Positions 15,551-46,779 of a stretch of 64,000 bases of DNA are shown one piece after another (the stretch's first letter is position 1; each line of letters opens with the position of its first letter). Source of the DNA: Paraspadella gotoi (lineage: Eukaryota > Animalia > Chaetognatha); contig CM119263.1 of the NCBI GenBank assembly GCA_051294375.1, positions 6,296,932 through 6,360,931 on the forward strand, in the 5' to 3' direction. Made by a program: the position numbers and the translations under genes. The notes below the pieces were generated by a model. The model made no database searches and was not told where the DNA came from. It worked only from the letters and a program-made list of their open reading frames with translations.

Positions 15551-15613
<63 letters not shown>

Positions 15614-15634
15614 GTTTGATTGCACCAATGACGG

Positions 15635-18600: not shown

Positions 18601-18804
18601 AAGGGAAGGAGACGAGGAAGAGGAAGAGGGAGAGGAGGAAGCGGCGCCAATCTCGACAGGCGACGCCGATTCCTCTGGAGGCGGCGTCAATTCCGTCGGC
18701 GCCTCGAGGTCATCGGAGACAAAGATGGGACGAAGTTGGGAATGAGGCGACGCCGGAAATGGGGAAGACGCCGAAAAGGGGCGTCGGTCGAACGACGACG
18801 CCAT
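15635..18804 (-). CDS. FoxN2/3: Forkhead box transcription factor, FoxN2/3 type
   Basis: Exons 18804-17821, 17520-17144, 16777-15635. The spliced forkhead domain reads KPPYSFTSLIFMAIETCPEKRMQ|VREIYSWLANHFPYFRSPFKKGWKNSIRHNLSLNKSFGKV..GKSSYWII; the upstream LRPLSWL motif and KPPYSF.LIFMAIE are typical of FoxN2/3. In exon 3 the frame stops at 16330-16332 (GAAAAATGA), and one extra A would join it to ORF 16333-15635, which ends KKRK. Confidence 0.9.
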
Positions 18805-21442
18805 TTTGAGAAGAATGCGGATCGAGCGAGGGGTCTTGGGAGATGTGGAAACCAGAAACCTGGAATAAAGAGAGAATATACGCATATGAGTCGAAAAATA
18901 GTTCAATTTCTTTATAAACCTGTAGGGCGCTTAAATTCTCGAATGTTTTCATTAAAAAAACAAATAAACGCTTTGAAAACTCAAAATTGATACTGCCCAA
19001 ATTTGAAATTAAAAAAAAAAATTTTCGGAACTGGAATGTCGACTGTTGCTTTCTTGTCGTCGTCGTCGTCGTGATAAGGAAAGAGTCGGTAGCGATAAGA
19101 GATCCCTGTGTCGCGACTCGCTCGACGAAGATCGATTCTCGAGTGGCGAAGGTAAACAAATATAACAACATTAGCTTCAAAACAAAAAAGATGTAGTATT
19201 CACCGATTGTGAGAGGTATTATTTGTTTTGAGAAATGTGATCAGTGATCAATCCACCATTCTGTTCCATTACCATTCAATTCCATTCTTTATAAGATCGA
19301 ATCGTCTTAAAACTTCGGCTCAACTCGTATTTGTTTCTGTTTAACAAAGTTCAATCTGGAACTAGAAATTCAAATATGTCAAATAAATTGGGCTGAGCAA
19401 AATTTCCTTCTCTCTTGATCGAGCGTGCCATCAATCGCAAATTCATACGCGAGAGATTATGATCTAATTGTTGCTGACGTTGCAAGTTGCGGCCAAATAA
19501 TATTTGGTAAAAAGGTTAAAGGCTTGAAAATGACATTAAAATGTCGAATATGAAATGTGGTTTCGTCGCTGCGGGTTTTTTTTTTTTTTTTTTTTTTTTA
19601 GTTTTATTTCCTTCAAGTTCGGTTCTCTCTATTTCAACTTTATAATTTACGAATACATAAGCCACCTGCTAATATATTATATATATGCATATAAAACGTT
19701 TTTACTTCGGGAGAGAATATTTGAAATTCGTCGAGACTAAAAAAAAAAAAAAATCCCGCTTTACGTAAAGAGCTGAATAAAAAAAGAATTGGCTCAAGCT
19801 CACGTTCTCCTCAAACCTTTACGATAATAAGTAAGGAAGCCGCTGGAAATAGAAAAAAGTTTTATGTCCTTTTTTCAGTTTTTTTTCCCAAAGGAGTTTA
19901 GTTTTGTCTTAAAAGTCTACAGTTAAAGAGTGAGGAGACTAAAATTTTGATGACTTATGCGTTAGTAGCCTTGTCAAGCGATGTCTTTTATTTTTACAGA
20001 ATAGAAAAAAAAATACAAATCAAAAGAAATACTTTAAAGCAGTTATTGTAAAAGACTAAAAATCAAAAGTTGATAGTTCTATAGCATTTTAGAAAATATT
20101 AATATTTAATGTATTTCTGTGTGGATAATTTAGCCCTAAAAATGTGGCAAATACGTATTTTACCCCGAAAGATGTCGCTTTGGATTTAAAGAACAAAAGC
20201 GACGATGAAAAAAAAATGAGCAACGAATTTCGTGCACTGAGTTGAACTTGAATTCGTCCTGCAGTAAATCGGTTTCGGTCGTAGTAATAAAAGACTTTAG
20301 CCATTACCATTTGAGACGGTTAAACAATAAGACCTTTAAAGTTAACTTTTGGTAAACGCGTTTAGGTTAAGTCTAAAAAGAATAAAACAACACAAGCGAC
20401 ATTTATTCATCGAAGTACGAATCTGGCTCAGTCGATAAAATTAATTTGTTATTTTGTACAAATGTACATTAACATTTTCTCGCTAATAGTAATGTATCCC
20501 AGCTTTCAATGAATATTATTAGTATTACACTAAAAAAATAAACGGTGGTGACTGAGAATCCTCAGAGACTCAACATTCGTGCCGAAGGTGATTTTGTCGC
20601 GCGTACCAATCCGTACGTAATTTCTAGGTCGCGTTTCCCTGCGCCGTGAAAGAGGTTTTACCCAAAAAGGGTTATGATCCCTGTAATCCATCCCTACTCT
20701 TCATTGTCTCTCCTGATCTGAACTCGAGAGAGAGAGTGTGAAAATGTTGCGCTGTCATAACTTGTGTGAAAAAGTCATTTTCGCCTTTTTTTTTTTTTTT
20801 TTTTGGCGCCTTTTATCAGTATTTGTTCTTTTCTGAGTACAAATAGTACAAACATATTAAATTTACCGGATTTATTTTGCCCTTTTGATAAGTCCACGGC
20901 TGACAAGTGTCACTAGAAATGACAACGACAAAATCTCGCGGGTAGAAACGCGTCCCAAAAAATCTGAACTTTTCATCCAAAAAAAAAAAAACATGTTGGG
21001 AATCACGAGAGACGTCACGTCTCAATGCAATAAAGTTTAATTCGATAATTGAATTTGTCAAAGAAAGAAAAAAAAAAGAAGAGATGATATGAGGTCGTTA
21101 ATCCTTTCGGTTCAAGGTCATCGATTTGCTGGACTGATTCTAGCGCCTCCTTCTCGCGCCCGCAGGGGGTTTTCGTTCAAATTAGTAAAATAATAATAAA
21201 TCGATAAGTGTAGGTAAACTTTAAAAAAACGTTTTCACTATTTTTCCTCTTTTAATTGCTCATCCGAACTATCCTTTTTCAAAAAAAAAAAAAAAAAAAA
21301 AGAGAGAGAGAGAAAGAGAGAGCATTTGGCCTAATTTATTCTTCAGTTCAATCCAATTTTTCATTTCTTAGTCGTCCGTCTATATATCGGCGATTTAAAA
21401 AAAAAAAAAAGACAAAAAATCAACAATAATCAAAAAAAAAGG

Positions 21443-24400
21443 ATGAGGCCCGCGTCGCGCATTCTCCTTCTCGGTCTGTCGATCTCCGTCGCCACCACCG
21501 CGCGGACAGGCGTCGAGCTGATCGACAACGGCTACACCGGTGTCCTCGTCGCCATCCACGACGACGTCGACGAAGACGCCGCCGTCATCGAAGGCATCCA
21601 GCGCGTCATCACTTCCGGTTCCAAGCAGCTCTTCGCCTCCACCAAGCAGAGAGCTTACTTCGCCGAGGTCTCCATATTAATCCCGCCCGCGTGGAGTCGC
21701 AAGACCGAATACTTTCCAAAGAGGAAAGAAACTTACTCCAACGCGGACTTCGTGGTGGCGCCGGTAATCAAAAAGTACGGCCACGCCCCTTACGCGAAGA
21801 GCTTCGGCGGATGCGGCGATCCCGGCAAGTCGCGGCGAGTTTGTACGGGATTAAATTGATTGGATTAAATGAAATAGTTTAGTTTACTAACCAATCGGTA
21901 TCAAATAAACTAATGATATAATCAAATCACAGAAATAAAAAAGCTTCTTATTGGATTATTCACTTGCAGGCGAATACGTTCACTTCACACCGACCTACTT
22001 GACCGACGAGAGCGTGAGGCGAGATTTCGGCGACGAGGGTAAGGTCGTCGTACACGAGTGGGGTCACTACAGGTGGGGACTTCAAGAAGAGTATCCGTCC
22101 CAAGATGGAGGACCCGAGTTCTACTACTCGACGGAAACGAATCAGTACGAGGCCGTACGCTGTTCGCTCAGCACCAAAGGCCGTATTTTGGAGGCAAGTG
22201 CTATGCAATAGGGCATTTAAAAAAAAAAGTTGTAGAGTATAAGAAACTCAAATTCTTAAAATTTTATAAAGCTATATTTAGTTTTACATAATATAGAAAT
22301 AAAGACCCATATAAATATTTCGGTAAGTTTATCTAAAAACTTCATATTTTATTAACTGTTTGTTAGCTATATTTATTAATAAATAATAATTAAAGAATAA
22401 GCTTAAATGAAAAAATTAAAATTTTAAAATTTTAAAACCGGATTTGAATTTCTTACAAAAAGTTGATAAAAGAAAGTATAATCCATTTTAACAAATTATT
22501 TCATTAAGTTGGTTAAAAATGTTAAAAACATTTTTTTACTTAATTTTTTGGCTTTGGCTTGAATTTTGACCAACTTAATGACATAATTTTGGAATAAAAA
22601 ATTATATTTTCTTATATCAACTTTTTGCAAGGAATGCAAATCCAGGAATAAAATTTTGAAATTACTATTTTTAAATTTAACCAATTTTTTTTCATAATTA
22701 TTCATTAACTTTTAATAAAATATAAAATTTAGAAATGAATTTACCAAAATATTTTTATAAGTCTTTTTTTTTAAATTTCAAAAGCTCATGTAAATTTTAT
22801 AAAATTTTAATAATTTGATTTATCATAACTCATAATTGTTTTTATTTTTTCTGATAATTTTATATACATTAAAAATCGTCATTTTCGACATGAAAGATAA
22901 AATTATACCAAAAAAATGGTCATCACCATCGAATTCTACAGACTTAAAATAGCTATGTACCTTATTCGATTTGTTATATTTTGTTATTTTTAAACGCCCT
23001 ACTATGCAACATACCATAGAGAGAACATATTTTAAGCTCATTTAATTCCTCTTTTCGTTCATAGGTAATAGGAGAGAAAAAGTACCGACCTTGTCGGGTG
23101 AACAACGGAATTCCCGACAGCGAAAAGTGCCGCTTTTTTCCCGGATTCATGATCGATAACCCGTCGAAAGTCTCGATCATGGACAGACAAGGGACAAATA
23201 ACGTGGACCAATTCTGCGAAAACAGCGACGATCCGAATCACAAACACAACACCGAAGCCCCGAATCGGATGAACCGTCTTTGCGGCGGGAAGAGCTCGTG
23301 GGAGGTGATGCTGGAACACGCGGACTTTAAAGACGTCAACCCGTCGAAATCGGAAAAAACAAACGTGGCGCCGAAATTCAAGTTGGTTCAGGCGGTGGAA
23401 GCCGTGACCCGATGTCGACTCTCGCTCGTCCTCGACGTCAGCGGGAGCATGAACGACAACAAGAAGATGATGAAAATGATTCGAGGTCTGAGGAAGATGA
23501 TTCGATTCACGCTGAGTAGAAACACGGAGGTCGGATCCGCATTTTTCAGCAACAAGGGCGACATCAAGTGCGGAATGCACAAGCTCACCGACGAGAGAAG
23601 TCGAAGTTTTTTCGTCGATCAATGCTTGCCGTCCTACGGCGAAGGCGGGACCAGCATCGGTTTGGGTTTGATGAGAGGCGTGGAGAATCTTAGACAACAC
23701 AAAACCGGCGACCGAATCCTCTTGCTGACCGACGGCGGTTCCAACGCTTATCCGGGACCCGAGGAACCGGTCGTCGTAGCCGCCCTACAAGGAGCCAAAG
23801 TCTCCATCGACACCATCACCTTCTCCAGCGCCGTCGATCCGACGATGATGAAGATCGCCAAAGTCTTTGGCGGCAATTACTTTTACGACTCCGACAAAAT
23901 CAGGACTCGATCCCTCAATTACGCCTTCTCCAAGAATCCTTGCGGAGATGAGGATGACGACAACGAAAACGAAATCGAATTGGCGAGCAGTTCTGGAAAT
24001 CTAGGAGCAAAGGACTTTGAGGACTTTGTCGTTGTGGATGATTCCGTGGGAGACGACTTGAGGTTTCTATTTAAATACAGCAAGACAGGATCGGGTAAAT
24101 CTGGAGCGGGGATTCTGGTGACGCTGACGAGTCCATCGGGGAGACAAATCGGCGAGAAAGACGACGAATACTTTGTCGACGCAAAGCACAAAAGGATCAG
24201 CATCTCGATTCCCGAAAATGCTGAGATCGGCCGGTGGGATTACGTCATACAAAAAGCGAGCGATTCGTCGCAAACTTACAAAGTCAACGTCTTGACGAAA
24301 CCACGTGACTTTGGCGACGATCGAAAACCCGCGCCGTTGATAGTTTATTCCGACGTCAAATCCAACGTCGATTATCCATCGCCGATGATCGTTTACGTGG

Positions 24401-25380
24401 AAGTCACCAAAGGATCGAATCCTGTATTGGGTTTGCGGGTCGTCGCTTTGGTCGATCGACCGGGAAGAGATGATTCGTTTGAACTGGAAGTGCGAGACAA
24501 TGGACAGGGCGCCGACACGACTCGGGATGACGGAGTCTACTCTCGCTACTTCACCGCCTTCACGGAAATAGGTCCCTACTCGATGAACATCCGGGTTTCG
24601 AATCCCAACGGCACGGGAGTCGTGCGCGTCTACCAAACAGGCGGGACAATCACTGGGGGCGCCATTGCATTTACCGAGGACAATCTGCGTCCCAGCGATC
24701 CGGTCGCTTATGTGGACGAAGCGATCCGGGGAGACGTTTCCAGATCGACCAACGCAGGCGCATCGGAATTAAAGACGGAAGCTTCGAAAGAGAGCCTCGT
24801 CAACGTGCTCCTCAAAAACGGCGTGGATGAGATTCCACCCGACAGAATCACGGATCTACGTCTCGTGAATACGTCACTCTCGAGTGGAAATGTCACTCTG
24901 ACCTTCACGGCGACTGGCGACGATTACGACGACGGAAAAGTGTCGAGTTATCGCGTTCGTGTCTCTTCTAGCGACTCTACCGCGTTCAACGGATCGACGA
25001 GAATATTTGAGGTCGAGTCCGCCGTCGATCCTGGCGAAACCGAGACGCTGACCTTCAACGCGCAGCCTCCTGAAGCCGGGAATGCGTCCTTCAGCGTGGT
25101 CGTCGTCGGCGTCGACGACAGCGGAAACGTCGGCATAGATTCGAACATCGTCACCTTTGGCCTCGGCTACGTACCGGACATCGTGGACGGAAAGCTGCCC
25201 TACGGCGGAGTGTTCGACTCTACGATCGTCATCGTCGTGGCCGTTCTCGTTATGGCCGCCATCCTGAATTTGATCCTTGCCTTTTTCATTTATCTTCTCA
25301 CTCGAAGACAGAGGAAAAAGCAGAAATTTTCCGACAGAAATCTTTCTGTCAGCAGAAACGTCGGCCCGAGATACATCTGA
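21443..25380 (+). CDS. CLCA: Calcium-activated chloride channel regulator (CLCA) family zinc metalloprotease/VWA protein, ~973 aa, with signal peptide and C-terminal TM helix
   Basis: Exons 21443-21824, 21970-22193, 23065-25380 join in frame (2922 nt). Signal peptide; NGYTGVLVAI; GCGDPGEYVHFTP; HEWGHYRWGLQEEY (HExxH); CENSDDPNHKHNTEAPNRMNRLC; VWA MIDAS DVSGS...LLTDG; DNGQGADTTRDDGVYSRYFT; PPDRITDL..TATGDDYDDG (FN3-like); TM IVIVVAVLVMAAILNLILAFFIYLL. Confidence 0.96.
22425..22660. mobile_element. AT-rich foldback/MITE family member in CLCA intron 2
   Basis: Inverted arms GGATTTGAATTTCTTACAAAAAGTTGATAAAAGAAAGTATAAT..TTAAGTTGGTTAAAA / TTTTGACCAACTTAA..ATTATATTTTCTTATATCAACTTTTTGCAAGGAATGCAAATCC; related copies at ~37905-38130 and ~41505-41735. 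Confidence 0.6.
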
Positions 25381-26429: not shown

Positions 26430-26690
26430 CTCGACGATTCCATTTCCATTCCTACCCACATACAAAATTTAATTCCAATCTATCCATTCAATCACCGAGC
26501 AATTGGAGTTTTTGTGGCTAAGGTGGGACGGACGGACAGACAGACGGATGGACGGACATCGTTTTGTTTTGTTTTTTTTGCATAATTTATCATAAGTCAA
26601 TGCCCGACAAGATTGAGGGGGCGGGCCGACGGACCGACAAATTAAATTATAGAGTCGGGATCTGCTGATAAGCAGATCCGACTAAAAATT
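26430..26690. mobile_element. Helitron/Helentron-like non-autonomous element remnants
   Basis: (GACG/GACA)n microsatellite at 26525-26558 and hairpin AGTCGGGATCTGCT-gata-AGCAGATCCGACT (26653-26683) followed by AAAAA. This microsatellite-plus-terminal-hairpin layout is typical of DINE-1/HINE-like elements; a similar motif set lies at ~5640-5706. Confidence 0.4.
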
Positions 26691-26803
26691 TGACTGGTAA
26701 CATAGCGACGCGGATTAAAAATCGTGAATAACCGTTCACGAAACAGATTAGTTTGGGCAACTGAAAAACCATATTAGTCATATTAGACATTTTATGTATA
26801 CTT

Positions 26804-27357
26804 TAGGGTGGAGCGATGAAAAGATTGAGACATGTTACAGTATTTATTTGCTGCCTCTGTATAAATGATAAAATTTTAGCCAATCTATGATCGTAACTAT
26901 AACAGAAATTATATGTTTTCTTTGCAGTATTATCCTTATAAATTAAAAAAATTTTAAAATTGTTTTTTAATTTTTAACAACAGATTTGGATTTGCAAGAA
27001 AAAATTAAGAAACTTTTGTAAAATATGTTATATAATATTTTAATGTTAAAACCTCAAAAAATAATTAAAAAGTTATATCATGAAATAGTTTCAACTACAG
27101 AAAGTCAAAAAGTTAAAAATTTAATCTTTTTTACCCATTTTTAACGCTGAAGACATCGGAATTTTTCTTAACGTGTTTTATATTTTTTGTCTAACCTTTT
27201 ATGGGGAATCTGAATCTTTAATAAACATTTTTAAAAAGTCATTTTAAAATTTTACTATTTAAAGAATTTCTTGTACTTTATAATTATACCACTTCACATA
27301 TAAAAATCATTGTAACATATTTATAATAAAAATTTTATTCTCGAGAGCTCCACTCTA
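26804..27357. mobile_element. Putative non-autonomous DNA transposon with short TIRs
   Basis: TAGGGTGGAGC at 26804-26814 and GCTCCACTCTA at 27347-27357 are a 10/11 inverted match with TA at both ends; internal cagatttggattt / ggaatctgaatct sub-repeats resemble the MITE family above. Confidence 0.35.
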
Positions 27358-27519
27358 TATACATGTTTACATTTGCGCTATCGTCGATCTTACGTTCGAA
27401 GCAAAATCAAAGCATTTTCGACTTAAATAGACTCACTTGAAGTTAAAATAATTGGTTGTTTACGATCATTGTTTAAATTATTTAGACCTTCGGATTAAAG
27501 TACCACACCGACATTTAAA

Positions 27520-30500
27520 ATGCATGTTAGAAAATTTTATGTAAGTAGTTGCAGTATTAAAAAGATGCAATATATGATTTAAAATTAATTTATTTTTAAA
27601 TTTAGGGCAATTTTCTTTCACTCCTTGGATTAATGATGCTTTTTTGCCGCGTTAAAAATAATAAAGATAAAACAGGTAAGAAATGATAATTTCATGTTCT
27701 CGTTTTATGGCAAGATCCTTCTGATTTATATATTTTTCAAGTACTTTGAATTTAACCTTATGTTATGGTTTCCAATTATTTTATTAAACGATGATCTAGA
27801 CCTGGACCGAGACGATTTGGAAAAGGCATGTGAAAATGGCGACGTCTCTGGCGTCACAAAATTATTATCGTATTACGGTGCCGACGCCGTCTTTGACACT
27901 AAGATCTACATCCCTGTCTTCGAAAAAGTAAGCAGAGTCGCTGTCGTTGGGTACTCGGAGACCTAAGGTACTGTCTCCATGAGTGTCAACCGCCCACAAG
28001 AAGGGCAATAGGGTTAAGAAAAAGGAGAAAACTGTCAGAAAGTCACGAAAAATGCTTACTTTACGAATGTACATAATGAGCTTTAACAATAGATTTTCAT
28101 TATCTACAGAAATAGAGCAACATTTCAGACCCACTAGTAAATAATTTTTATATCGGAATAATACAAAATATGTAAATAAACTAGAATTGCTAAAATTACA
28201 TTTTTTTTTCTTTTTAGCTATATTTGAATTTGTTCATTGTAATAGACCATCATCATGCTATTGAGCAAAGATTTTCAAAAAGATTTTCAAAAAGATTTTC
28301 AAAAAGAGCAATCTTTTGCCAATATGCATGATAAATTTGGTTACTTATTATGCAAAATGAATATGCTTAATTAATTTTTAATAATTGATGAAAATATCAG
28401 ATTAAAGGCATTCAATTTTGGAACAATCTGATATTTTTCGTTTTTAGATATCATCAACGGAATGGACCTATAAACGGACTTGGTTGGCCTAGTGATGTGA
28501 TTGCTCGTCTTCTTCACGAATCATCAGAATGCCGACGAATCACAGACCTTACTTCAACCTTAGAATGACCAATGACCGACAGAGGAACCGACGGAGGGAT
28601 TGATGGTCAAAATTGCTAAGAGAACTCTAGGCATTCACCTCTACACAGGAACTCAAGAAAGAACTCTTCTTCAAATAATTATTGAACCATTTAATATTGT
28701 CATCACCTTTGTCTTAACCTTTGTTATCGTGTCATCGTTACCTATGTCATCACCCTAATCATTGTCCGTCATTAATAAACTATTGTCAACCAAATACTTT
28801 GCCACTTATTATTTACCCTCGTTATTTGACTAAACGTCAACGATATCTTTATTTTTGTTGCAAAACTAAAATTCTGAATGACGATTGATCAAGACGATAT
28901 TTTTTCCAAAATCTTTAAAGAAATAAAGCCTTGCTCAAATAAATTACTTTTTTAATAACATTGATTAACATATTTTAGCTGTCAGTGGTATTTTTATATT
29001 TAAATTAACTTAAATTTTATTTCATTTTAGAGAGGATAAAAAATCCTATCTGACATTGTAGAGTTTGAAAATACTTTTTTATGAAAATATCTTTTGGAAA
29101 TAAATATCTAAAATAAAAATAAACATACTTTTGACTATTAAACAAGTTTTCAAAATATCAAATTTTGGCTATTTTTACATTTTCGCACACCCGATAACGA
29201 AACTTTCAAGCAAAAATGGGGTAAAATTCTCAAAGACCTAGGGGTCCATAATTGTTTTTATAGTAACTCGGACATAATGAACACCCAGAATCCCCAGTAC
29301 AGTAACGATTCTCTATATACTCCATAGTATGACCCCCCCATTACCTCATATTTGTTTTCGCTTTAATTTTAAAAAAAATTGGAAAATTGCAATGATTAAG
29401 TTTCAAATTTGACCTCTTCTAAAAAAAACAGTCACTAAATAAAGAAGACTCATTACAAATATCATACAAAATGCCATATTTTACCGTTTCATAGAAACAC
29501 TGTCACGAAATGTTACAAACGAGAAAACTGATACTCTACTTAGGTAAACGCGTGGACGACCTGTCTTCCTCTCGCGTTGCTCAACTCGAGGCTTGAGCTC
29601 GCAGAAGATCTTGTCCGTGCGGGAGCTGACGTTGAAGCGAAGGACTATTTCGGTGAAACGCCTCTTTATGACGCCGTAAGGTCGAAAAACGTCAGCGTCA
29701 TACAATTTTTGCTCTGCCACGGGGTCGAGACGTCTCCCAAAAACCGCTATGGGGAAACTCCATTGCATATCGCGGCCTCTGAGAATTCGGCAGTTGCCAT
29801 CGACTTGCTGCTGGAAGCGGGCGCCGACATTGACGCGGTCGACGAAGATGGCAATACGCCTGTTGCGGAGGCGATCCGCTTGCTCGAATCGTCGGTTGTG
29901 AGGGAACTCGTCAAGCAGGGCGCCGACGTCTCGGGACTCAAATTGGAAGACCGAGCGACGAGGATAGCGGTAGAAGAAGGAAAGGCACTCAGAAAAAAAA
30001 TAATAGGTTGTTTATTTTTAGAATTTATTGAAGAGATTTTCAAGTTGACCCTTTAAATTTGTTTAACCTTTGGCGCCATTCAGAAACGTGCGAACGGAAT
30101 CGTTATGAAGGTTTATCGGATAAATGGAAAAGCGTCGGATTTCAATGCGAAATGGCAAATGTGTCAATTTGCGATCGAGGTAAAAAGTATATAAAAGTAA
30201 TTGTTTTTAAAGTTTAAAAATGGTGAAACATTTACTCGCCCCAGCACAGCCACTAAGATTTTTTTTTTAGTTAATCGAGAAATTATATCTTTTTTTCACT
30301 ATCAGCCGCGAGTTTAACCGTGAAATTCAACGCAACTGAGTTAGAACAAGCTTGTCGACATGGCAACAAAACTGCTCTTTTTTCGATTATGGCATTAGAA
30401 AATGACGCACAAAACTACAGCTTTGAGAACGGTTGGCGTTGCCTCCACATAGCCGCCGCCAACAATGATACGGTGACCGTTGAAACTCTGCTGTTGCTCG

Positions 30501-33500
30501 GCGTCGACCCGAATCAGCGCCGCATCGAGAAAGCGACGGCGTTGCACGACGCATCTCGACATGGTCACTCGGGCGTCATCGTCGCGTTGCTTGTTGCGGG
30601 TGCAGATGTTGACCCGATCGACTATTACGGACGGACCCCGCTGAGGATCGCCATAGTTAAACGGCAGACAGCGGCCGTGGAAATACTCGCCAAATTTGGG
30701 GCGTCCTTAAAAAAAGCGAACCAATCGGATTTTGAAAATGATCTTTTCTTAGAAGCTTTAGATGATCCCATGGTTTGGAAATCGATAAAAGCTGGTGAAG
30801 TTGAAAATTTAGTACTGATATCGTTCTCGTATATTAATAGTAGGATAGATTATTTTTACAGAAGTGGATCCTTGTTTTTGTTCTCCTTGCAAAAATGGTG
30901 CTATCTGTACTAATTACAAAAACGAGGTCGTTTGCTCTTGCAAATTAGGTTGGAAGGGAAACTTTTGTTCTGAAAAAGGTAAACGAAATTAAAAAAAAAT
31001 TAAGTACAAAATTATTAAAAACTTTTTAAAATTACTTAATACTTAATGAATTTTACTTTATTGGTCAAGAACTTAATGATTGCGATGCAAATCCCTGCCA
31101 AAATGGGGGCACGTGCATAGATGGAATTGGTACCTTCACTTGCCAATGTTATAACAACTATTTAGGAGAAACATGTAATGAAAAAGGTACAGTTCAGAAA
31201 TAAACTATTATTTTGTGGTGGTTTAAAGCTAAACTAATTATTTGTATTTTAAGTGGTAAGTGAGCCGAAGTCAAGAAAATCTCTAGAAGAACAGAAGGAA
31301 CGCTTTGAAGATGAGAAAGTCATATTATATTGCACTAAAGTGTTTCAGCATGAATTAGAGACATGCGAAACCCTTTGGAAATTTAACGATGACACAATTC
31401 TCCAAACAAGTCGTATTACCGTGATCTGCGAAAGGGACAAAACTTTTCTATTGATTGAATCAATTCAAATGAGCGATCGTGGGAAATACACCTGCGATGT
31501 CACAGATTCACATTCAAGAGTCTTCCGTCTTGTGGTAAAAAAGAAACTGCGCTTCGATTCACGCCCTTCAGATATCGTTCTCTTGCCGTCAGTGGACCAT
31601 AAGTTACATTGTGGTGTTTCTGGCGACGAACAAAACTTTACCATCGAATGGTTTTTGGGAAATATGTTGATGGACAAGAAAACCATTCAATCAGTCTCCA
31701 ACGCTGCACTGAATTTGCGTATTACAAACTCAAGTGCTAAGTCTAACGCCGGACGCTACATGTGTCAAGTTAGCTCCCTCTCAAGCGGCCAGACGATAAG
31801 CGCGGTTGCTTGGGTTCGAGTAACTGCCGATATCTGCGCTTCTTCACCCTGCAAGTATCTCGGCACTTGCACCAACCTCAAGCGGGGAAAGGTCGCGGCG
31901 TTTCAATGCTCTTGCCTGAGTGGGTTCACTGGCAGCGACTGCTCAGGACTGGACAGATGGAACAATCCTAAAATGGGAATCCAAGATCTTATCGCTCACA
32001 CGCCCTTTTACCAAGCCTTGCGGTTTGACAACCGTCGCAAAGACATGCATCGTGTAATTCTGGGATGTTTCTTCAGCGACAAGGCATCAAATTACCAATG
32101 GTGGAGCATCTCCCAACAAGGTCGACAAAACTTGACGCAAAACAAGACACTGGAGATGGATCTGCAGGCGCCTAATCGTTTTGCATCCACAAAAACGCCC
32201 TCGCATCATGACACAGTCTTTAACTGCACGGCGAAAATCGCCGGAGAGTTGGTCTGGGATGCAAGAAGAATCAAGTTTTATGACTTTATTCGTTGGGGAG
32301 ACATCAGCAAACATAGATTAAACAATGAAAAAAATTCAACTAACGTTTCAGTTGTCAATTGGAGACTGAATGGAGATACAATTGAGACAACCAAGTCTTT
32401 AGAATTCAACAGCTTTATTCGCGGTTACCCCGGCTCTTTGCAAACCATTTCTGCAGAGTTGGATACAATGAAGCAAAATTCGATGTGGCCAGTCGTCACT
32501 TGCGCCTACGACCAAGCACAGTTTGTACTTTTGTGTTTGTTCACTTTATTATCAAATGTATTATACATAGGTATGGTGTTTTGTGAACTTGAGAACATTT
32601 CGGTGCCAAAGTTGACATGCATGTCAAATTCTAGCCAAAAAAACAAACCTCCCTCAACTGAAATTAGTAAAAATTGGTTTAAAATTATTCAAACCAAATC
32701 AAAATCTGTTTTGAATAAATTGCAGATTGCCTTTCATGAGTTGTTCAAAAAGTCACAGAGATTTTTAACTCTAATGCAATCATTAACCCTGTTGGATCTA
32801 ATGGCAGCATTCGTATTTCTTTTGCGTAAAGATTACTGCTGGTGCTTGCTCACCTTACTGATTTTAATATTATCATGGCTAAGCAAAATTGCCCTGGCCC
32901 TTTCCGAATTTTACAATAATCCAACGGATTACAATTCATTGCTAACAAAAAAATATTTGTTAGGTCTCAATCTACTATTTAATCAAGCAGAAAGAATTAT
33001 TAAGCATAATTATCAAAAGTCATTAGAGCTGGAAAAAGACATTTCCGTACTTGCTCGTAAGAAAAAGTTAGTCAAGAATTTGTCTTGGATAAGTCTGCTG
33101 AAAAACGTGGCCACGCTTTATCTCAACGCGTACATTATCTCCAAGCTATTCGGTCTTGAGCACATGTGCCTCCCATCATACCCTCTCCTTCGCCGGTGGA
33201 CGACTCACGGCAATTGGAGTCGATCGAGCAGGTCCGAGTTTTCCCGGTTCTCGCTATCTTCCTCAACCCAAACGATTTTTGAGTCATTGACCAATGTCAA
33301 TGACCAGGGAGCCACGGCCCTGTCGAATGATCGAGAGCCATGTTCCTGCGTCACTTTCGAGGCTGACCTCGGATCTTGTTTTCCTCCGAACGATCTGGAC
33401 GCGTCTGTACTCGATTCGCGAAAAAAGTGTTTCGTGGCCGACTGCTACGATCGACCGAGCGTCGCCAGTGTCTTTTTCCCCATCTTGTCTTTCGTCAAAA

Positions 33501-34372
33501 GCGTCATCTTCATTTCTTACGGGTTCGCCACTAGATTAAGCGACGCCTATCCAACAAAATTCGTCTTAGTCTTTCGCGTATTATTCTTTTCTTGGACAAT
33601 ATGTGTCAGTTTGTTGTGCCTCCTTTACAGCTCCGACACGGTGAGAGCGAGAGTTCATTCCGAGAAGACCAACTGGATTTGGTTATTGTCCGGTTTTATT
33701 CTGGCCAAGTTGGCAACCTGCCGGTTCTCGGATCGAAACTCCCGTCTGCGGTATTGCGTAGCTTCTATGCTTTGCTCGATATTGTACATCGTTCCCATCT
33801 ATCTGCTCCACGCCTATAAGGGATGCGACGAAAATGCGAGAAACCGAATGACCATCCTCACCGCCAAGCGTGGCACCGAAGAAATGCTCACCTTTCGATC
33901 CGACCTGCATTACTGGAGTGGCGCTGTCTTGGAAATGTACGGGGATGAGTTCAGAATCGAAGAGAAGCCGGACTTGCTGCCGCGCGACAGCCTCAGCGAC
34001 CTGGAATCGTTCTTTAACATTCGCTACGACTTCAATTTCGTTATATATATGTTTCGAGCAATCGGCGTTCTCGCTTTCTGCGATTTTTGTCTCAACTCGA
34101 TAAACTTTGCAGTTTCCGTTCTTGAGCAAGTTCCTGACGACGACTTGAGGAAAACAACGAAAAATACCAACGAAAATGGAAATAATGACGAAGACCACGA
34201 AGAAAAAATAGCTGCCCCTGAGGAGTGTAATGAAGCGCGAACAATTTCGTTCGCTATCGCACCGCCTGCATTTACGTTTTTAGCAGAAGAAAACAAGCCA
34301 ATCAACTCTTCATCATGTTTAGGATACGACGAAGTCGTAGAAGTGCTGGAATCGGAAGTTTCGAAACTGTAA
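27520..34372 (+). CDS. Multidomain membrane protein, ~1539 aa: signal peptide, ankyrin repeats (2 blocks), 2 EGF, 2 Ig, EGF, Ig-like, TM, then a multi-pass domain resembling XK-related proteins
   Basis: Nine GT-AG exons with consistent phases: 27520-27540, 27606-27675, 27800-27927, 29544-30006, 30084-30179, 30306-30794, 30862-30978, 31070-31186, 31254-34372 (4620 nt, no internal stop). ANK: GETPLYDAV, GETPLHIAA, GNTPVAEAI, TALHDAS, GRTPLRIAI. EGF exons: EVDPCFCSPCKNGAIC..CSCKLGWKGNFC and NDCDANPCQNGGTCIDGIGTFTCQCYNNYLGETC. Ig: DRGKYTC, NAGRYMC. About 9 hydrophobic helices lie at 32517-34115. The domains are secure; their fusion into one transcript is inferred from splice phases. Confidence 0.8.
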
Positions 34373-36137: not shown

Positions 36138-37264
36138 TTAACTAACAATTCATTTTCTACCTCAAACATAAAATAAATTTTAAAAAATTATTATTTATTA
36201 TAAAATTCTAAAATTTGGATTACTGAACAAAAAAAATGTATATTATTGCGCAAACTAAGACTCGACGCTAGAGGGAAAACAAAATTAAATGCATTAACAA
36301 ACCACCGACCGGTGGTACCTAAGATTGTCGGACGTCGAATAGTAATTTTTATTAAGCACAAAGAGAAGAATACAAATATCGATTATTGGCAGTAAGGCGA
36401 CGGTCATTCAGCCTTTTATATTTCTCATGGAAAAGATCGAAAGAAATGTTTTAAAAAATGGATCAATAATTATTTCCGAGTTGAATATATACCAACGTTA
36501 CAATAATTTTAATATGCCCTTATTATTAAAGCTCTAGCTAAAACATGAATTTGACATTCCGATAAAGAAAGTAAAAATAACTTTGAAAAACTTTTTAACT
36601 TCTCGTAAGAATTTCATTTTAAAAGTTGGTGAAATTTCAAAAGTCGTCACGCTTTGCCAAAATCCCTCACAGCTGCTTTCCTCTGAAATTCTTCACACAC
36701 AAACGATTATCCGCTTAATCCCTCCTTGTTTTTCTCTTTCCCTCTCTCTTCAATTTTTTTTCCTGTGTATCTCTAAAAGCTTCAGCCAGTGGGAGAGCAG
36801 GCACCCCTTCTCTTTTTTTTTTGGTTCAATATTCAATCCGATGTTGAAGTTTCCAAGAACCAACTTCTCTTCCTCCTTTGTTCCTGCGATGCTCGATTGT
36901 TTAGTTGCCAACTTCTGTTCTTGTATAATCTTGTTTATAAACAGTAGGTAGCGCGACGAGTCTTCCGAAGTATTTCTTTTCAGTCTTTCTTAAAGTTAAA
37001 CAAATGATAAAGTTTAGGGTCTATGATATCCTACCAATAGTACGTACCAGTACGTACGAATGAGCCATCGCAAGCTATGACTACACCGTTAACACTTTTT
37101 TTTTTAAAATAATTTTAAAAAAACAAATTACTCAGTAAATCAAGTCTTTTTTTTTCTCAATTTTTTATTTCACATTATTTCAATTTTTAGTTCATCGGGT
37201 CCCGTTACTCGCCAGTAACTCCACTCCACTCCACTCCTTCCAACTCACTCCACATCCTCCTCCT

Positions 37265-39343
37265 TCACAACCTCCTATTATCCTCCGTCGCATCGTCGAA
37301 AGAGTCCCTGTCCTCCTCATCGCCTCCTCCTCCTCCGCCGTTCGGCGGTGGCCGAGTCGAAATCCTTGAAGCGCAAATATCCGTTGATGACGATGGCGTG
37401 GTGATGAAGAAGCAAGTCGCCCACCTCGAACTGGCATCCGTCGTTGATGGCGAGGGGCACGCCCACGTCGCCGATGAGAGAGAGTTGGGGATCAGCTCCA
37501 CTGGAAGGGCGGGATTCGAGACGGAGTTGACGTCGGCACTCGTTAACGGAGCGTCACAAACCTCTTTCTTACCTATGAGCATATTCTCCACGATTTCCAA
37601 AATTGTGGTCCACGTCGTCCCGTTTGATTCTTCGATTTCGTCAAAAAACTCTCCGTTCGGTTCTCCATCGCCTGACGGTCAAAACGAATTTATTATTATT
37701 GATTTAATTACTAAAAATAAAAAAATAAAAAAAGCTGACTTTCGTTAAAATTTAGCATATAAAATGAAATAAAAACCCATAAAATACTTTGATAAATTAA
37801 TTTCTTAATTTTATACAATAGTAGGCCCAGTGAGCTATATTTATTATATAGTAATAAGTATTTAATAGGCTAAAATTTCAAAAATACAAATTTTTAAATT
37901 TTAAGATTGTATTTGGATTCCTGCAAAAAGTTGATAAAAGAAAGTATAATTCTTTTAAAAAAAAATATTTTATTAAGTTGGTCAAAAATGTTAGAAAACT
38001 ATATTTAAGACGCCGATTTTCAATTTCTATCTTAAAAATATAGTTTTTTGTAATTTTAACCTACTTAATAACATAATTTTTGAAAAAGATTTCTATTTTC
38101 TTATCAACTTTTAATGAGGAATCTGAATCTGTTCTCAGAATTAAAAAAAAACATTTTTATAAAATTTTGACATTATATAAAGGGTATTACTATTACTAAG
38201 CTGACATGGCTACTATATTTATAAAAAAAAAATAACTATAGATTAGTATTCACTAATATGAAGTTTCTCTTCACCCTAGTGACCAGTGACCACCTTCCGA
38301 CTAAAACGAGCAGAAAGCGTCGCAAATTCTTAAGAGCGAATTCGAACTTCACTTCCATCCCACCTTCCGCCAACCATTTCCACCCAATCACATCAAATCC
38401 TCGCCACATTCTCCTTTATTTTCCCCCAAATTCCACCGACCACCTCAATTGGCCCCCCCACCACCCCATTACCCCCTCCCCCCGCCTCCCCCCGCTTTAC
38501 TTCGAACTCGGACGCGATGGATTTTTTCTCGAAAGAAAATCTGACGACGAAATCTTGTGCGAACTTCGGTTCCATGTGAAAAAGGATGTCGTGTCGCGAC
38601 TTGTGAAAGAGGCTCCAGCGTCGCAGAGACTCTTCGCGGATCTGTTTGAAAGGCGGATTGACGGGCTGCTTGACGTTGGAGGCGCTGTGGCTAAGGATTT
38701 AACCGAGGCATGTCGATCTTCCACGTCCGCCGCCACCGTCACGAATCCTGAAGAAGGTATTGGGGTAGTTGGGGAGTTTGGAATGTCGGAAGGGGTCGAA
38801 TGAAAACTTTCTAAAGCAAACAAAAAACGTCCTCAGTTCACTTCTTTTTTTAATCTCGTTTCATTTCTGCTGTTGGGGAAAATTTTTTTTGTGGATTCGT
38901 CAAAAGACTCAATTCGAATAAACTCGAAACTGAAATGTTCAATCTTTCTTCTTCATATTCTTCGTCCCCTTATACTCGATATTCATGCCTCATTGCAATT
39001 TCGTCAAACGCCATCTCATCCAACTCCATTCGTCTAACTTTTTCAAATCCTACATCCATCTTTTCCGACTCCAGCCCAGCCAAGCCCCCCCATCCCTTTC
39101 CTCCTTCCCCTTTCAACTTCCACCCTCCAACCGCTGAGCTTCATGACGATTCCATCCGGCGAGATGAAGATATGCGGTCGCTCCTTCAGCGCCGCCTCCA
39201 CAAAGATGTTATGCGGCGCCACTCGAGTGAAGGTCAGGATGTAGCGCTGCAGATTGGGCAGCGCCGCCCAGTCGGACTCGCAAAGTCGGCCAGGCGCAGT
39301 TTGTGAATCCAGAAGGGGATCGTGTTCAGGGTAAACTCGCTGA
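37265..39343 (-). pseudogene. Duplicated 3' exons of the BPI-like gene within the tandem duplication (frameshifted; possibly an assembly artefact)
   Basis: Near-identical to 40876-42943 but with different 1-3 bp indels; it has no 5' exons of its own. Confidence 0.55.
37905..38130. mobile_element. Foldback/MITE family member related to 22425-22660 (duplicated at ~41505-41735)
   Basis: Shares AAAAAGTTGATAAAAGAAAGTATAAT and ATTAAGTTGGTCAAAAATGTTA, plus the inverted arm TTTTCTTATCAACTTTT..GGAATCTGAATCT. Confidence 0.55.
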
Positions 39344-39733: not shown

Positions 39734-40875
39734 TTAACTAACAATTCATTTTCTACCTCAAACATAAAATAAATTTTTAAAAAATTATTATTTATTATAA
39801 AATTCTAAAATTTGGATTACTGAACAAAAAAAATGTATATTATTGCGCAAACTAAGACTCGACGCTAGAGGGAAAACAAAATTAAATGCATTAACAAACC
39901 ACCGACCGGTGGTACCTAAGATTGTCGGACGTCGAATAGTAAATTTTTTATTAAGCACAAAGAGAAGAATACAAATATCGATTATTGGCAGTAAGGCGAC
40001 GGGTCATTCAGCCTTTTTATATTTCTCATGGAAAAGATCGAAAGAAATGTTTTAAAAAATGGATCAATAATTATTTCCGAGTTGAATATATACCAACGTT
40101 ACAATAATTTTAATATGCCCTTATTATTAAAGCTCTAGCTAAAACATGAAATTTGACATTCGATAAAGAAAGTAAAAATAACTTTGAAAAACTTTTAACT
40201 TCTCGTAAGAATTTCATTTTAAAAGTTGGTGAAATTTCAAAAGTCGTCACGCTTTGCCAAAATCCCTCACAGCTGCTTTCCTCTGAAATCTTCACACACA
40301 AACGATTATCCGCTTAATCCCTCCTTGTTTTTCTCTTTCCCTCTCTCTTCAATTTTTTTTCCTGTGTATCTCTAAAAGCTTCAGCCAGTGGGAGAGCAGG
40401 CACCCCTTCTCTTTTTTTTTGGTTCAATATTCAATCCGATGTTGAAGTTTCCAAGAACCAACTTCTCTTCCTCCTTTGTTCCTGCGATGCTCGATTGTTT
40501 AGTTGCCAACTTCTGTTCTTGTATAATCTTGTTTATAAACAGTAGGTAGCGCGACGAGTCTTCCGAAGTATTTCTTTTCAGTCTTTCTTAAAGTTAAACA
40601 AATGATAAAGTTTAGGGTCTATGATATCCTACCAATAGTACGTACCAGTACGTACGAATGAGCCATCGCAAGCTATGACTACACCGTTAACACTTTTTTT
40701 TTTAAATAATTTTCAAAAAACAAATTACTCAGTAAATCAAGTCTTTTTTTTTCTCAATTTTTTATTTCACATTATTTCAATTTTTAGTTCATCGGGGCTC
40801 CGTTACTCGCCAGTAACTCCACTCCACTCCACTCCTTCCACTCCACTCCACATCCTCCTCCTTCACAACCTCCTA

Positions 40876-43800
40876 TTATTCCTCCGTCGCATCGTCGAAA
40901 GAGTCCCTGTCCTCCTCATCGACCTCCTCCTCCTCCGCCGTTCGGCGGTGGCCGAGTCGGAAATCCTTGAAGCGCAAATATCCGTTGATGACGATGGCGT
41001 GGTGATGAAGAAGCAAGTCGCCCACCTCGAACTGGCATCCGTCGTTGATGGCGAGGGGCACGCCCACGTCGCCGATCAGAGAGAGTTGGGGGATCAGCTC
41101 CACTGGAAGGGCGGGATTCGAGACGGAGTTGACGTCGGCACTCGTTAACGAGGCGTCACAAACCTCTTTCTTACCTATGAGCATATTCTCCACGATTTCC
41201 AAAATTGTGGTCCACGTCGTCCGTTTGATTTCTTCCGATTTCGTCAAAAAACTCTCCGTTCGGTTCTCCATCGCCTGACGGTCAAACGAATTTATTATTA
41301 TTGATTAATTACTAAAAATAAAAAAATAAAAAAAGCTGACTTCGTTAAAATTTAGCATATAAAAATGAAAATAAAAACCCATAAAATACTTTGATAAATT
41401 AATTTCTTAATTTTATACAATAGTAGGCCCCAGTGAGCTATATTTATATATAGTAATAAGTATTTAATAGGCTAAAATTTCAAAATACAAATTTTTAAAT
41501 TTTAAGATTGTATTTGGATTCCTTGAAAAAGTTGATAAAAGAAAGTATAATTCTTTTAAAAAAAAATATTTTATTAAGTTGGTCAAAAATGTAGAAAACT
41601 ATATTTAAGACGCCGATTTTCAATTTCTATCTTAAAAAATATAGTTTTTTGTAATTTTAACCTACTTAATAACATAATTTTTGAAAAAAGATTTCTATTT
41701 TCTTTTATCAACTTTTAATGAGGAATCTGAATCTGTTCTCAGAATTAAAAAAAAAAAACATTTTAAAATTTTGACATTATATAAGGGTATTACTATTACT
41801 AAGCTGACATGGCTACTATATTTATAAAAAAAAAATAACTATAGATTAGTATTCACTAATATGATAGTTTTCTCTTCACCCTAGTGACCAGTGACCACCT
41901 TCCGACTAAAACGAGCAGAAGCGTCGCAATTCTTAAGAGCGAATTCGAACTTCACTTCCATCCCACTTCCGCCACCATTTCACCCAATCACATCAAATCC
42001 TCGCCACATTCTCCTCTTATTTTCCCCCCCAATTCCACCGACCACCTCAATTGCCCCCCCCCACCACCCATTACCCCCTCCCCGCCTCCCCCCCGCTTTA
42101 CTTCGAACTCGGACCCGATGGATTTTTTCTCGAAAGAAAATCTGACGACGAAATCTTTGTCGAACTTCGGTTCCATGTGAAAAAGGATGTCGTGTCGCGA
42201 CTTGTGAAAGAGGCTCCAGCGTCGCAGAGACTCTTCGCGGATCTGTTTGAAGGCGGATTGACGGGCTGCTTGACGTTGGAGGCGCTGGTGGCTAAGGATT
42301 TAACCGAGCATGTCGATCTTCCACGTCCGCCGCACCCGTCACGAATCCTGAAGAAGGTATTGGGGTAGTTGGGGAGTTTGGAGATGTCGAAGGGGTCGAA
42401 TGAAACTTTCTAAAGCAAACAAAAAAACGTCCTCAGTTCACTTCTTTTTTTTAATCTCGTTTCATTTCTGCTGTTGGGGAAAATTTTTTTTGTGGATTCG
42501 TCAAAAGACTCAATTCGATAAACTCGAAACTGAAATGTCAATCTTTCTTCTCCCATATTCTTCGTCCCTTATACTCGATATTCATGCCTCATTGCAATTT
42601 CGTCAAACGCCATCTCATCCAACTCCATTCGTCTAACTTTTTCAAATCCTACATCCATCTTTTCCGACTCCAGCCCAGCCAAGCCCCCCCATCCCTTTCC
42701 TCCTTCCCCTTTCAACTTCCAACCCTCCAACCGCTGAGCTTCATGACGATTCCATCCGGCGAGATGAAGATATGCGGTCGCTCCTTCAGCGCCGCCTCCA
42801 CAAAGATGTTATGCGGCGCCACTCGAGTGAAGGTCAGGATGTAGCGCTGCAGATAATGGGGCAGCGCCGCCCAGTCGGACTCGGCAAAGTCGGCCAGGCG
42901 CAGTTTGTGAATCCAGAAGGGGATCGTGTTCAGGGTAAACTCGCTGAAAATGAATTCGAATTGAGTGATAATTCTTAATTAATGTAGTTTTGTGGTTTTG
43001 TTTGAGAGTTTAACGTTTACAGTCACGAAGTATATTAATAACAATATGTAACACTTGTTCAAAACATTCATATCGTGCCATCCATGTCGAAAAAAAAAAC
43101 ACATTGTACAAATTGAATATTTGTGCATAAACATGTAAACATAAACATATTAAACGTAAAATATATCATTCCCGACCGACCTAATGCAATAGCAGAGGTG
43201 CTTTTCGATTCCCCTCGTCTTCGGCAGGTTGGCCATGTTGGGAACCTGACCCATTGAAATGTCGTAGATGGTCGTCGAAAAGGGATGACGCAACGCTGGA
43301 TCGTCTTCCTCCTCGGGAGATCGCGGTCGCCCCTTCTTGGCTGAAAAATTTGGAGGGGCGGAGGGGGTACTTGCAAATTGATAACCGAGTCGTCAGAACT
43401 TTGTAGACTATCCTGAGATAAAGAGGTAGAATTGGTCCATGTATTGTTGCTTGATTGATTGATTAAATAATTGTTTGGTTTATCAACTCGTTTGATAGAT
43501 CGCCTTTTAAAATTTTGTATACTACCCAGTACCCACTCATCAACCAACAAAATCATAACCCTTCAGTCTCTAAACCCATCTCTCTATCAAACCCCCTCCC
43601 ATCCTCGCTAATCTCACCCGCCCTGATGTCCAGCCATCGCAACACGTCTTCAGTGGGCACGATGACGCTGCTGAGCTGCCAGGCGCACCAATTCGCGTCC
43701 ACGTAGATATCGTTCTCGAAAAGATTCCCGACGTAGAAGGCGGTGCCGAGGATGAGGCCCGGCAGCGGGAAGGAGACCGGGAGCAGCTGGACGATCTCCT

Positions 43801-46277: not shown

Positions 46278-46779
46278 TTATTTTATTTTCGGCGGTGAAG
46301 TAAAGGCAAAGATGGGGACAGAGTCAGACTTGTAGGTCATATTGTCCAAAGATCCGATCTTTGCTCTCGCTTTTTTCTGAAACTGGAGTTTTTCTTTCAA
46401 AACGCTCGTTTGATCCGCGTCCTCCGATGCGGCGCGGCCCTGCGGGTGACGCCCCCACGGCGCCGGCGCTCCCTTGAACGCCAACGCCGCGTGACCCGCG
46501 GCGCCGTCGCCGCGTTTTCCGCCGTGATCACCGCCGGGCAAGGGGCGGTCGCGGTAGCCCGTGGCCGGAGCGCCCCCCTGCGATTTCCAGTGAAGGTTCT
46601 CCAGCGAGCCGACTTTAGCGAGGGCACGCCGAACCGCTTCCGGTCGGGCAGCCTCCCGCGCTGCCGAGGATCCGGAAGCGGCGTCCGCATCGGAGGAGGA
46701 GGAAGAGGAGGCACCGTGGCGTTGGTAAAAGTGATGCTTCAATTTCCTCATCTTGTCGTGAGCGCGTTTGTCGAATTGC
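46278..46779 (-). CDS. Tau/MAP2/MAP4-family microtubule-binding-repeat protein, terminal exon
   Basis: ALAKVGSLENLHWKSQGG and EKLQFQKKARAKIGSLDNMTY match the tau/MAP repeat (compare [26 protein letters not shown]). Acceptor cccgctcaccag| at 46780; the frame is open from there through the ATG at 46751 to the stop at 46278. Confidence 0.78.

Follow-up and report, generated by a model that had tools for sequence, protein, structure and literature searches.

A chaetognath gene joining ankyrin, EGF and Ig modules to a membrane domain of predicted XK/Xkr fold

Gene structure and domain content

At the locus level, we analyzed a 64,000-nt stretch of DNA from Paraspadella gotoi (assembly GCA_051294375.1, contig CM119263.1, positions 6,296,932 to 6,360,931 of the forward strand; hereafter, the window) and characterized a gene on its + strand at 27520..34372. 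We read its product as one cell-surface receptor or adhesion protein, in which an extracellular ectodomain of ankyrin repeats (ANK), EGF and immunoglobulin (Ig) domains stands on an XK-fold anchor with its own basigin-like helix, and we give this reading a probability of about 0.55. The original prediction had also proposed a surface receptor or adhesion protein, and our analyses support it, with likely extracellular ANK. It had further described the architecture as apparently new: no known family with the full domain order was found in the literature searched, but the multi-pass part has a predicted XK/Xkr fold and the core of the protein has 14 relatives.

The proposed nine exons and eight introns were confirmed in the window DNA. 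Joined together, the exons give a 4620-nt frame with one stop, encoding 1539 aa that end in ..EVSKL, and all nine are free of internal stops and frameshifts. The introns are all GT-AG, with phases 0,1,0,1,1,1,1,1; seven are short (65–126 nt) and AT-rich, and intron 3 is repeat-expanded (1616 nt). The RNA evidence came from one run (X1), as Logan contigs with a depth of about 3–6, compared over the part of the locus that begins upstream of exon 1 and ends where exon 8 starts. This run was counted as RNA on the grounds of its GT..AG joints; as it matches a fraction of 0.74 of the words sampled, the window itself may derive from it, hence it is not independent.

Exon 1 (27520..27540) is coding and begins the signal-peptide-like N-terminus, and the 5′ untranslated region (UTR) reaches back to at least 27189 (contig 27189-27540). 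Exon 2 (27606..27675), with both flanking joints in the RNA run, holds the hydrophobic core of the predicted signal peptide (residues 8–21) followed by a charged linker. Exon 3 (27800..27927), spliced in the run, encodes the first, capping-type ankyrin repeat of block 1 and is collinear with the start of exon 6. After intron 3 (27928..29543), exon 4 (29544..30006) contains ankyrin repeats 2–5 of block 1 and a cap; it is covered by contig 29633-29978, the run shows neither of its splices, and the donor that follows it at 30007 is weak. Exon 5 (30084..30179, phase 1-1, no RNA cover) encodes a linker of 32 aa that contains 3 Cys and one sequon, and could drop out by skipping without frame loss. 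Exon 6 (30306..30794) is the sequon-rich ankyrin block 2, with about 4 repeats. EGF 1 and EGF 2 are each encoded by a phase 1-1 exon: exon 7 (30862..30978), with both joints in the run, and exon 8 (31070..31186), with its acceptor joint in the run. The transcribed 5′ UTR also presents two short upstream open reading frames (ORFs) at 27201 and 27363 (6 and 25 aa).

Exon 9 (31254..34372) encodes the remaining Ig-EGF-Ig-like part, an extra membrane helix (TM0), the XK/Xkr-fold domain, the tail and the stop. Ig1 (about residues 520–597), Ig2 (600–692) and EGF 3 (693–732) lie at 31254..31948. At 32018..32500, the predicted model displays an Ig-like domain (residues 756–842; Ig chains at Z about 6.5), the third of the protein, and a small beta domain (843–916) without a clear match in the fold search of the model. 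The sequence, the family alignment and the model place at 32501..32734 a conserved Cys917, TM0 (about residues 922–944) and a basic cytoplasmic linker. The XK/Xkr-fold domain, with eight membrane helices (residues 995–1459; 32735..34129), was assigned from the predicted model, the fold search and sequence profiles, among them a family hidden Markov model (HMM); the model and the alignment locate Cys-bearing outer inserts within it at TM3-TM4 (about residues 1136–1233) and TM7-TM8 (about 1356–1428). The acidic tail (residues 1460–1539; 34130..34372) is predicted to be cytoplasmic and ends in SKL.

Pfam agreed with the modules that had been recognized by eye: exons 4 and 6 matched ANK (best E 9e-23 and 3e-20), exons 7 and 8 matched EGF –exon 8 only through a weak EGF_CA match below cut-off– and exon 9 gave two Ig-type matches (I-set and Ig_3) plus EGF. 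Exons 2, 3 and 5 had no Pfam match (8 pieces scanned), and tblastn found no paralogues of the gene within the window.

Transcript evidence

GT..AG joints were present in the RNA contigs for 4 of the 7 introns in the stretch compared (27540/27606, 27675/27800, 30794/30862 and 30978/31070). The last two, junctions already singled out by the original prediction, are the ANK2-to-EGF1 splice (intron 6, depth 3) and the EGF1-to-EGF2 splice (intron 7). No contig covers the bins that hold introns 4 and 5, and such gaps (exon 5, start of exon 6) are not proof of silence. For a single spliced gene, this one run gives joints at four of the eight introns; the join of exon 3 to exon 4, by which the signal peptide would be connected to the other domains, was not the splice seen.

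Several observations in the run count against our reading. The only splice seen from the end of exon 3 goes from donor 27927 to a cryptic acceptor at 28448, inside the high-depth intron-3 repeat, without joining exon 4; its product meets a stop (28490-28492) after 14 further codons, for a total of 87 aa. The predicted joint 27927/29544 is absent from the contigs of this one run, and contig 30765-30920 keeps intron 6 unspliced, at a depth of 6.4 vs. 3.0 for the spliced contig. In principle, the frame after the 28448 splice could be restored by a phase-2 donor at 28483; no such joint was among the contigs.

These observations would fit a full chain that is not, or no longer, made: either the intron-3 repeat diverts splicing and leaves a short product from this allele, or the ANK exons form a separate secreted protein –reading through intron 6 meets a stop at 30913– and the XK-anchored part is expressed otherwise. 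The weak donor at 30007 and the lack of ANK among the relatives would fit as well. Even taken jointly, we regard these two variants as unlikely. The nine exons have stayed open, and within exons the run departs from the window at a single, synonymous position (30890 C>T), whereas intron 3 differs at many positions. The ANK2-EGF splice is present, and exons 4–9 have no signal peptide of their own and no Met before residue 251. Moreover, exons 3+4 align to exon 6 straight over the 27927/29544 join (29% over 139 aa), which supports a coding join of exon 3 to exon 4. Finally, intronic cover (depth 3–6) is close to exonic cover, which suggests pre-mRNA or DNA in the run, and contigs lose rare forms; thus, a full mRNA is neither demonstrated nor ruled out by this run. 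The full-length mRNA of nine exons is predicted from DNA, with RNA joints for part of the introns only.

Intron 3 holds a 395-nt insert (28447-28841) that is high copy (contig depth about 400–1000) and has a 6-nt direct repeat on both sides; terminal inverted repeats were searched for and none was found. The 28448 acceptor used by exon 3 lies at the left edge of this insert. In the same run, one contig has the insert site empty together with about 5 nearby differences, and represents the other allele or another copy of the repeat. A further repeat, at 26500-26807 and some 700 nt before the start codon, reaches a contig depth of 14000–17000 in run X1.

Ectodomain and side of the ankyrin repeats

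The ankyrin repeats are likely outside the cell, given the enrichment of sequons, the ANK2-EGF1-EGF2 splices and the lack of a membrane segment before residue 921. Within residues 23–422, 7 of the 21 Asn fall within sequons vs. 2.15 expected (20000 shuffles, p 0.003). The enrichment is located in the linker and ANK block 2 (6/12 Asn, p 0.0004); ANK block 1 (1/7 Asn, p 0.53) and the EGF-Ig part (7/34 Asn, p 0.28) are not enriched. From the N-terminal hydrophobic stretch to residue 921, the hydropathy of the sequence displayed no membrane segment.

Two points weaken this placement. The split of sequons by block was chosen after the data had been seen, and the signal peptide was judged by eye: its hydrophobic stretch (residues 8–21), behind a basic N-terminus, stays below KD 1.5 over 19 residues.

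Phase-1 borders are found at ANK block 1 (exons 3+4) and at exons 5–8, and the Ig-EGF-Ig-TM-XK core is intronless. The N-terminal modules are indeed bounded by phase-1 introns, as had been proposed, and this pattern fits class 1-1 exon shuffling, known for extracellular modules.

Relatives and family anatomy

A phmmer search over 1.84 billion representatives retrieved 14 relatives at E<=0.001 (22–35% identical), all unnamed or 'hypothetical' and on contigs of 0.7–4.3 kb. P0002 and P0005 present the same order as exon 9 (Ig-Ig-EGF-Ig-like-TM0-XK), and P0003, P0004, P0012 and P0018 share the membrane-proximal end of the ectodomain. Common to the relatives are Ig-like domains, the extra helix and the two Cys-bearing outer loops. 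These outer inserts sit at matching spots of both repeats of the membrane domain (TM3-4 and TM7-8), and the model shows beta strands in each. Six Cys of the first insert are kept in 9/9 or 8/8 rows, Cys1358 in 13/14 rows, and Cys917, before TM0, in 7/7 rows reaching that far (two of these rows are one cluster).

The relatives also provide a point against our reading: Pfam ANK matched 0/14 of them, and the ANK fusion is known from this locus alone. Most of the relatives, however, look truncated: P0002–P0005 lack a signal peptide, their first residues fall within an Ig or beta domain, and they appear to miss their 5′ ends. P0018 may be complete and ANK-free. A word-index protein search found no relatives among 7994 candidates with residues 350–960 of exon 9, and one generic Ig match among 3372 with residues 1–440. 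An alignment search of longer proteins found none among 2502, all of 1944–5000 aa, so that ANK-bearing relatives of 1100–1900 aa were outside its range, and a metagenome scan gave 67 pattern matches and 0 confirmed relatives.

For the P0013 cluster, 7 of its 10 members were 49-aa peptides, and the two examined (P0019 and P0022) were unrelated to P0013; it is probably a clustering artefact.

Fold of the membrane domain

The XK idea arose from a resemblance to XK motifs and was then tested. With the protein itself, Pfam gave no XK match at E<=0.1 or E<=10; three PDB sequence searches gave 0 matches, and a fourth gave 2 chance matches to G-protein-coupled receptors (GPCRs; E 2.5 and 7.4). The XK sample used for comparison came from a motif scan of metagenomes (92 loci; 31 with frames of at least 230 aa, 24 of which were aligned), and 7 of 8 members checked were above the Pfam XK cut-off.

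We modeled residues 735–1466 with AlphaFold2 from 16 family rows, leaving out templates and canonical XK rows (pLDDT 65, pTM 0.65); P0012 and P0018 were misaligned over TM1-2 in the alignment behind this model. A single-sequence model (pLDDT 35) was set aside. The model displays TM0 plus eight more helices, in line with the one TM and about eight further helices first proposed. In a fold search over 48161 chains, XKR4 came first (Z 16.7, 276 residues aligned, root-mean-square deviation 4.5), followed by XKR9 (Z 15.2) and XKR8 (Z 14.9). No other chain reached Z 8 (rank 4 was Z 7.8). The XKR alignments span 259–284 residues over residues 995–1459 (model range 261–729) and include both repeats, with a structural identity of 9–13%.

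At the sequence level, the bridge is P0012. It matches the query by phmmer (E 5e-8), and it is the only one of the 14 relatives to pass the Pfam XK cut-off (XK-related, 48.4 bits vs. 24.8), over its N-terminal half and positions 4–149 of the 337 in the profile only. P0012, P0018 and all XK rows were kept out of the family HMM. It gives 100 bits to P0012, at most 5.5 bits to canonical XK rows (29/30 scored) and at most -0.8 to reversed controls. Since P0012 thus connects the query family and Pfam XK, we consider them homologous. Family and XK profiles matched with E 0.0011 over 112 columns. In an unrooted TM1-TM4 tree, 9 family rows split from 11 XK rows by a 97/93 branch, with P0012 nearest the split; the tree includes 20 of 26 rows (6 were too short) and has long branches, so no order of events was drawn from it.

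Other results speak against the XK assignment. The query scores weakly against our own XK HMM (6.5 bits at 1013–1047), 12/500 block shuffles match its best-domain XK score (full shuffles, 0/478 scored), and hhalign gives a probability of 2% for the query vs. the XK profile. Foldseek found nothing in the PDB at E<=0.001; most of its top rows were Ig domains, and these rows were the ones that the VIA second look covered. The fold search (VIA) also calls for caution, as helical models may reach Z about 14 by chance; here, the top three are all XKR.

EGF/Ig ectodomains and ANK are known in adhesion GPCR, TRP/ANK channel and Notch-type families, and the membrane part could belong to another multi-pass type (adhesion GPCR, TRP/ANK channel or TMEM117-like), or the protein could be Notch-like with cytosolic ANK. 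The two GPCR matches would point this way, as would P0005, whose residues 490–985 rank TMEM117 first in the Atlas feature search (0.81, below the 0.9 lead mark). However, Pfam gave no GAIN/GPS, 7TM or ion-channel match at E<=0.1 or E<=10, XKR is ahead by 7 Z units in the fold search, and ANK and EGF are not separated by a membrane helix. We find these options highly improbable, the fold search having already largely refuted the other membrane types.

Taking the model and the bridge together, we are highly confident that the membrane domain has the XK/Xkr scramblase fold. As modeled, the multi-pass part is a divergent XK/Xkr fold after one extra helix, not a new unassigned domain.

Lipid path, gate and basigin-like helix

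Passages of the Xkr8-basigin paper (PMC8500837) report that Xkr8 needs D26, D30, K134, E137, E141 and R183 for scrambling, that W45 gates, and that Ala at D26, K134, E137 or E141 singly leaves markedly less scrambling. For Xkr4, passages of PMC12334663 describe three buried acids in the vestibule (D125, D129 and E313) and scrambling by the uncleaved protein. For XKR9, those of PMC8298096 describe short outer loops, little outside the membrane and an important PQ kink motif. We mapped equivalents by motif spacing from the paper's Xkr8 numbering rather than from an alignment of the human sequence; since the XK sample had been picked on the E-x-x-P-Q-L motif, conservation of this motif there is by construction.

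The D30 equivalent is kept (D1015 in the query; D/E in 8/8 rows with letters), and so is that of W45 (W1030, D30+15; W in 8/9 family rows, one residue earlier in P0012). The D26 equivalent is absent from the query and core rows, and the E137 column is variable across the family (K,Q,E,K,K,Q,Y,R,Q), with Lys in the query. The E-x-x-P-Q-L kink of TM3 is deleted by a 4-residue gap –one turn– in 7/9 family rows, including the query. Of the scrambling acids D26, D30, E137 and E141, the query keeps only the D30 equivalent. The tail and the loop 945–1003 contain no DxxD caspase site (DxxD was the only motif searched). From these residues, the query XK domain probably has little scramblase activity. 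P0012 and P0018, with an Ig-like ectodomain, TM0 and XK fold, carry both TM1 Asp and an E-S-x-G-Q kink, and are the best candidates in the family for retained scramblase activity. We suggest a new XK-derived receptor-like family, and would not file it with Xkr scramblases, as several of their defining features are absent.

The family conserves membrane charges of its own: K1249 (7/8 rows), R/K1275 (8/9) and D/E1444 (11/11) indicate that the domain is constrained but rewired. Their conservation would be as compatible with transport as with a passive anchor. The protein could then be a scramblase or transporter gated by a ligand: once bound, the ectodomain would shift TM0 and the outer cap and open the rewired XK path with no need for a caspase, with phosphatidylserine exposure (as an eat-me or fusion signal) or solute passage as outcomes. 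In its scramblase form, this would be a receptor with an extracellular ANK/EGF/Ig sensor, a disulfide-stapled built-in basigin and a rewired path, triggered by a ligand, a microbe or a neighboring cell instead of a caspase, and answering with phosphatidylserine exposure or some other signal across the membrane. The complete two-repeat fold of the model, the conserved charges and D30 and W45 equivalents, and the TM1 Asp pair and kink of P0012 lend it some plausibility. Nevertheless, two of the three Xkr4 vestibule acids have no counterpart here, and the family varies at E137, one of the positions where a single Ala markedly lowers Xkr8 scrambling. We hold both the gated scramblase or transporter and the receptor form to be doubtful.

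For the extra helix, passages of PMC8500837 report that Xkr8 depends on an Ig protein, basigin or neuroplastin, with one membrane helix that lies against TM7 of Xkr8, and that engineered Cys at basigin A207 and Xkr8 T305 cross-link at the outer end of TM7. The conserved Cys917 and Cys1358 lie at about these two positions, and from their conservation we would guess a Cys917-Cys1358 disulfide at the basigin/TM7 contact. The Ig domains with the extra helix recall basigin, the separate partner of Xkr8, fused in cis, and by this analogy TM0 may occupy the basigin site of the XK domain. When TM0 and the small beta domain were paired with the XK domain in a complex prediction, run without alignments and with an uncertain partner fold, no verdict was reached (score 0.00).

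Proposed mechanism

Coming back to a surface receptor or adhesion protein on an XK-fold anchor, the signal peptide would carry ANK-EGF-EGF-Ig-Ig-EGF-Ig into the lumen of the endoplasmic reticulum, where glycosylation and disulfide bonding would occur. TM0 would halt the transfer and, together with the membrane-proximal Ig-like domains, replace basigin/neuroplastin. The XK domain would insert N-in/C-in as usual, its two enlarged outer loops forming a disulfide-bonded cap under the ectodomain. At the surface, the ectodomain would bind a ligand or a neighboring cell. Because most of the acidic lipid path is lost and there is no caspase site, the XK domain would act mainly as an anchor and conformational transducer, not as an apoptotic scramblase. 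Regarding its history, an intronless Ig-EGF-Ig-TM-XK core may have acquired phase 1-1 EGF and ANK modules N-terminally, followed by duplication of the ANK block.

Neighboring genes

Apart from this gene, 6 of the 14 neighboring ORFs scanned had Pfam matches (Forkhead, CLCA, tau-repeat, GH18 and Ras), a gene set that suggests a compact animal genome. The upstream neighbor (21335-25380, +) is a CLCA-family gene with CLCA N-terminal and VWA domains and a C-terminal membrane helix. On the – strand, we found a Forkhead gene (17140-18930), a tau/MAP tubulin-binding repeat gene (46278-46805), a Ras-family gene with a long N-terminal extension (48419-49892) and a GH18 chitinase (51347-53251). The Cys-rich tail of the chitinase (51375-51875), which resembles a chitin-binding domain in its pattern, is in another frame behind a Gly/Ser/Thr repeat, which implies an intron or frameshift in the repeat. 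Besides, 37191-37748 and 40639-41148 have near-identical translations, suggesting tandem duplication, and no Pfam match in the + strand frames.

Significance and comparison with known systems

The XK proteins described so far are small scramblases with hardly any loops, and they require an Ig partner, basigin/neuroplastin, as a second chain. At this locus and in its relatives, the predicted XK fold lies beneath a large ectodomain, with the Ig-helix unit in the same chain: a natural fusion that speaks for a long-standing partnership of Ig and XK and points to regulation from the extracellular side. In addition, the family offers a natural series from path-retaining (P0012) to path-deleted (the query) that can test which residues scrambling needs and the roles of non-scrambling XK proteins. 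Our literature search, with most subscription papers outside its scope, found no XK-Ig/EGF/ANK fusion and no extracellular ankyrin receptor. If the ANK blocks were confirmed in a full mRNA, this would be an animal membrane protein with glycosylated ankyrin repeats outside the cell, for which the literature searched gave no precedent.

Adhesion GPCRs and the Tie-type Ig-Ig-EGF-Ig ectodomains share with this protein a long modular ectodomain over a membrane signaling unit. Here, however, there is no GAIN/7TM or kinase Pfam match, and the membrane unit is a predicted XK fold. Notch, the comparison made in the original prediction, shares EGF and ankyrin repeats. Notch/LIN-12 proteins have a single TM, EGF outside, ANK inside and LNR/NOD domains, whereas here ANK is N-terminal, no helix separates it from EGF, Ig domains are present, the model has nine membrane helices, and Pfam gave no LNR/NOD match.

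Among XKR4, XKR9, CED-8 and XK (PF09815), XKR4 and XKR9 are the best fold matches, and P0012 is above the Pfam cut-off of this family. Compared to XKR9, with its short outer loops in the passages cited above (PMC8298096), this protein has about 900 ectodomain residues, a structural identity within the 9–13% range and no Pfam XK match of its own.

Human XKR8-basigin (PDB 8XEJ in the fold search, 7DCE in PMC8500837) shares the eight-helix two-repeat fold as predicted here (284 residues aligned), an Ig-bearing helix and the D30/W45 equivalents. It differs in that here a single chain carries the XK domain, the extra helix and the Ig domains, and has a large ANK/EGF/Ig ectodomain and two Cys-bearing outer inserts; the D26, E137 and E141-PQ equivalents are absent, the tail lacks DxxD, and no conserved counterpart of basigin E230 was seen in the family alignments. 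Owing to the XK fold and the extra helix, Xkr8-basigin replaces Notch as the nearest comparison for this protein.

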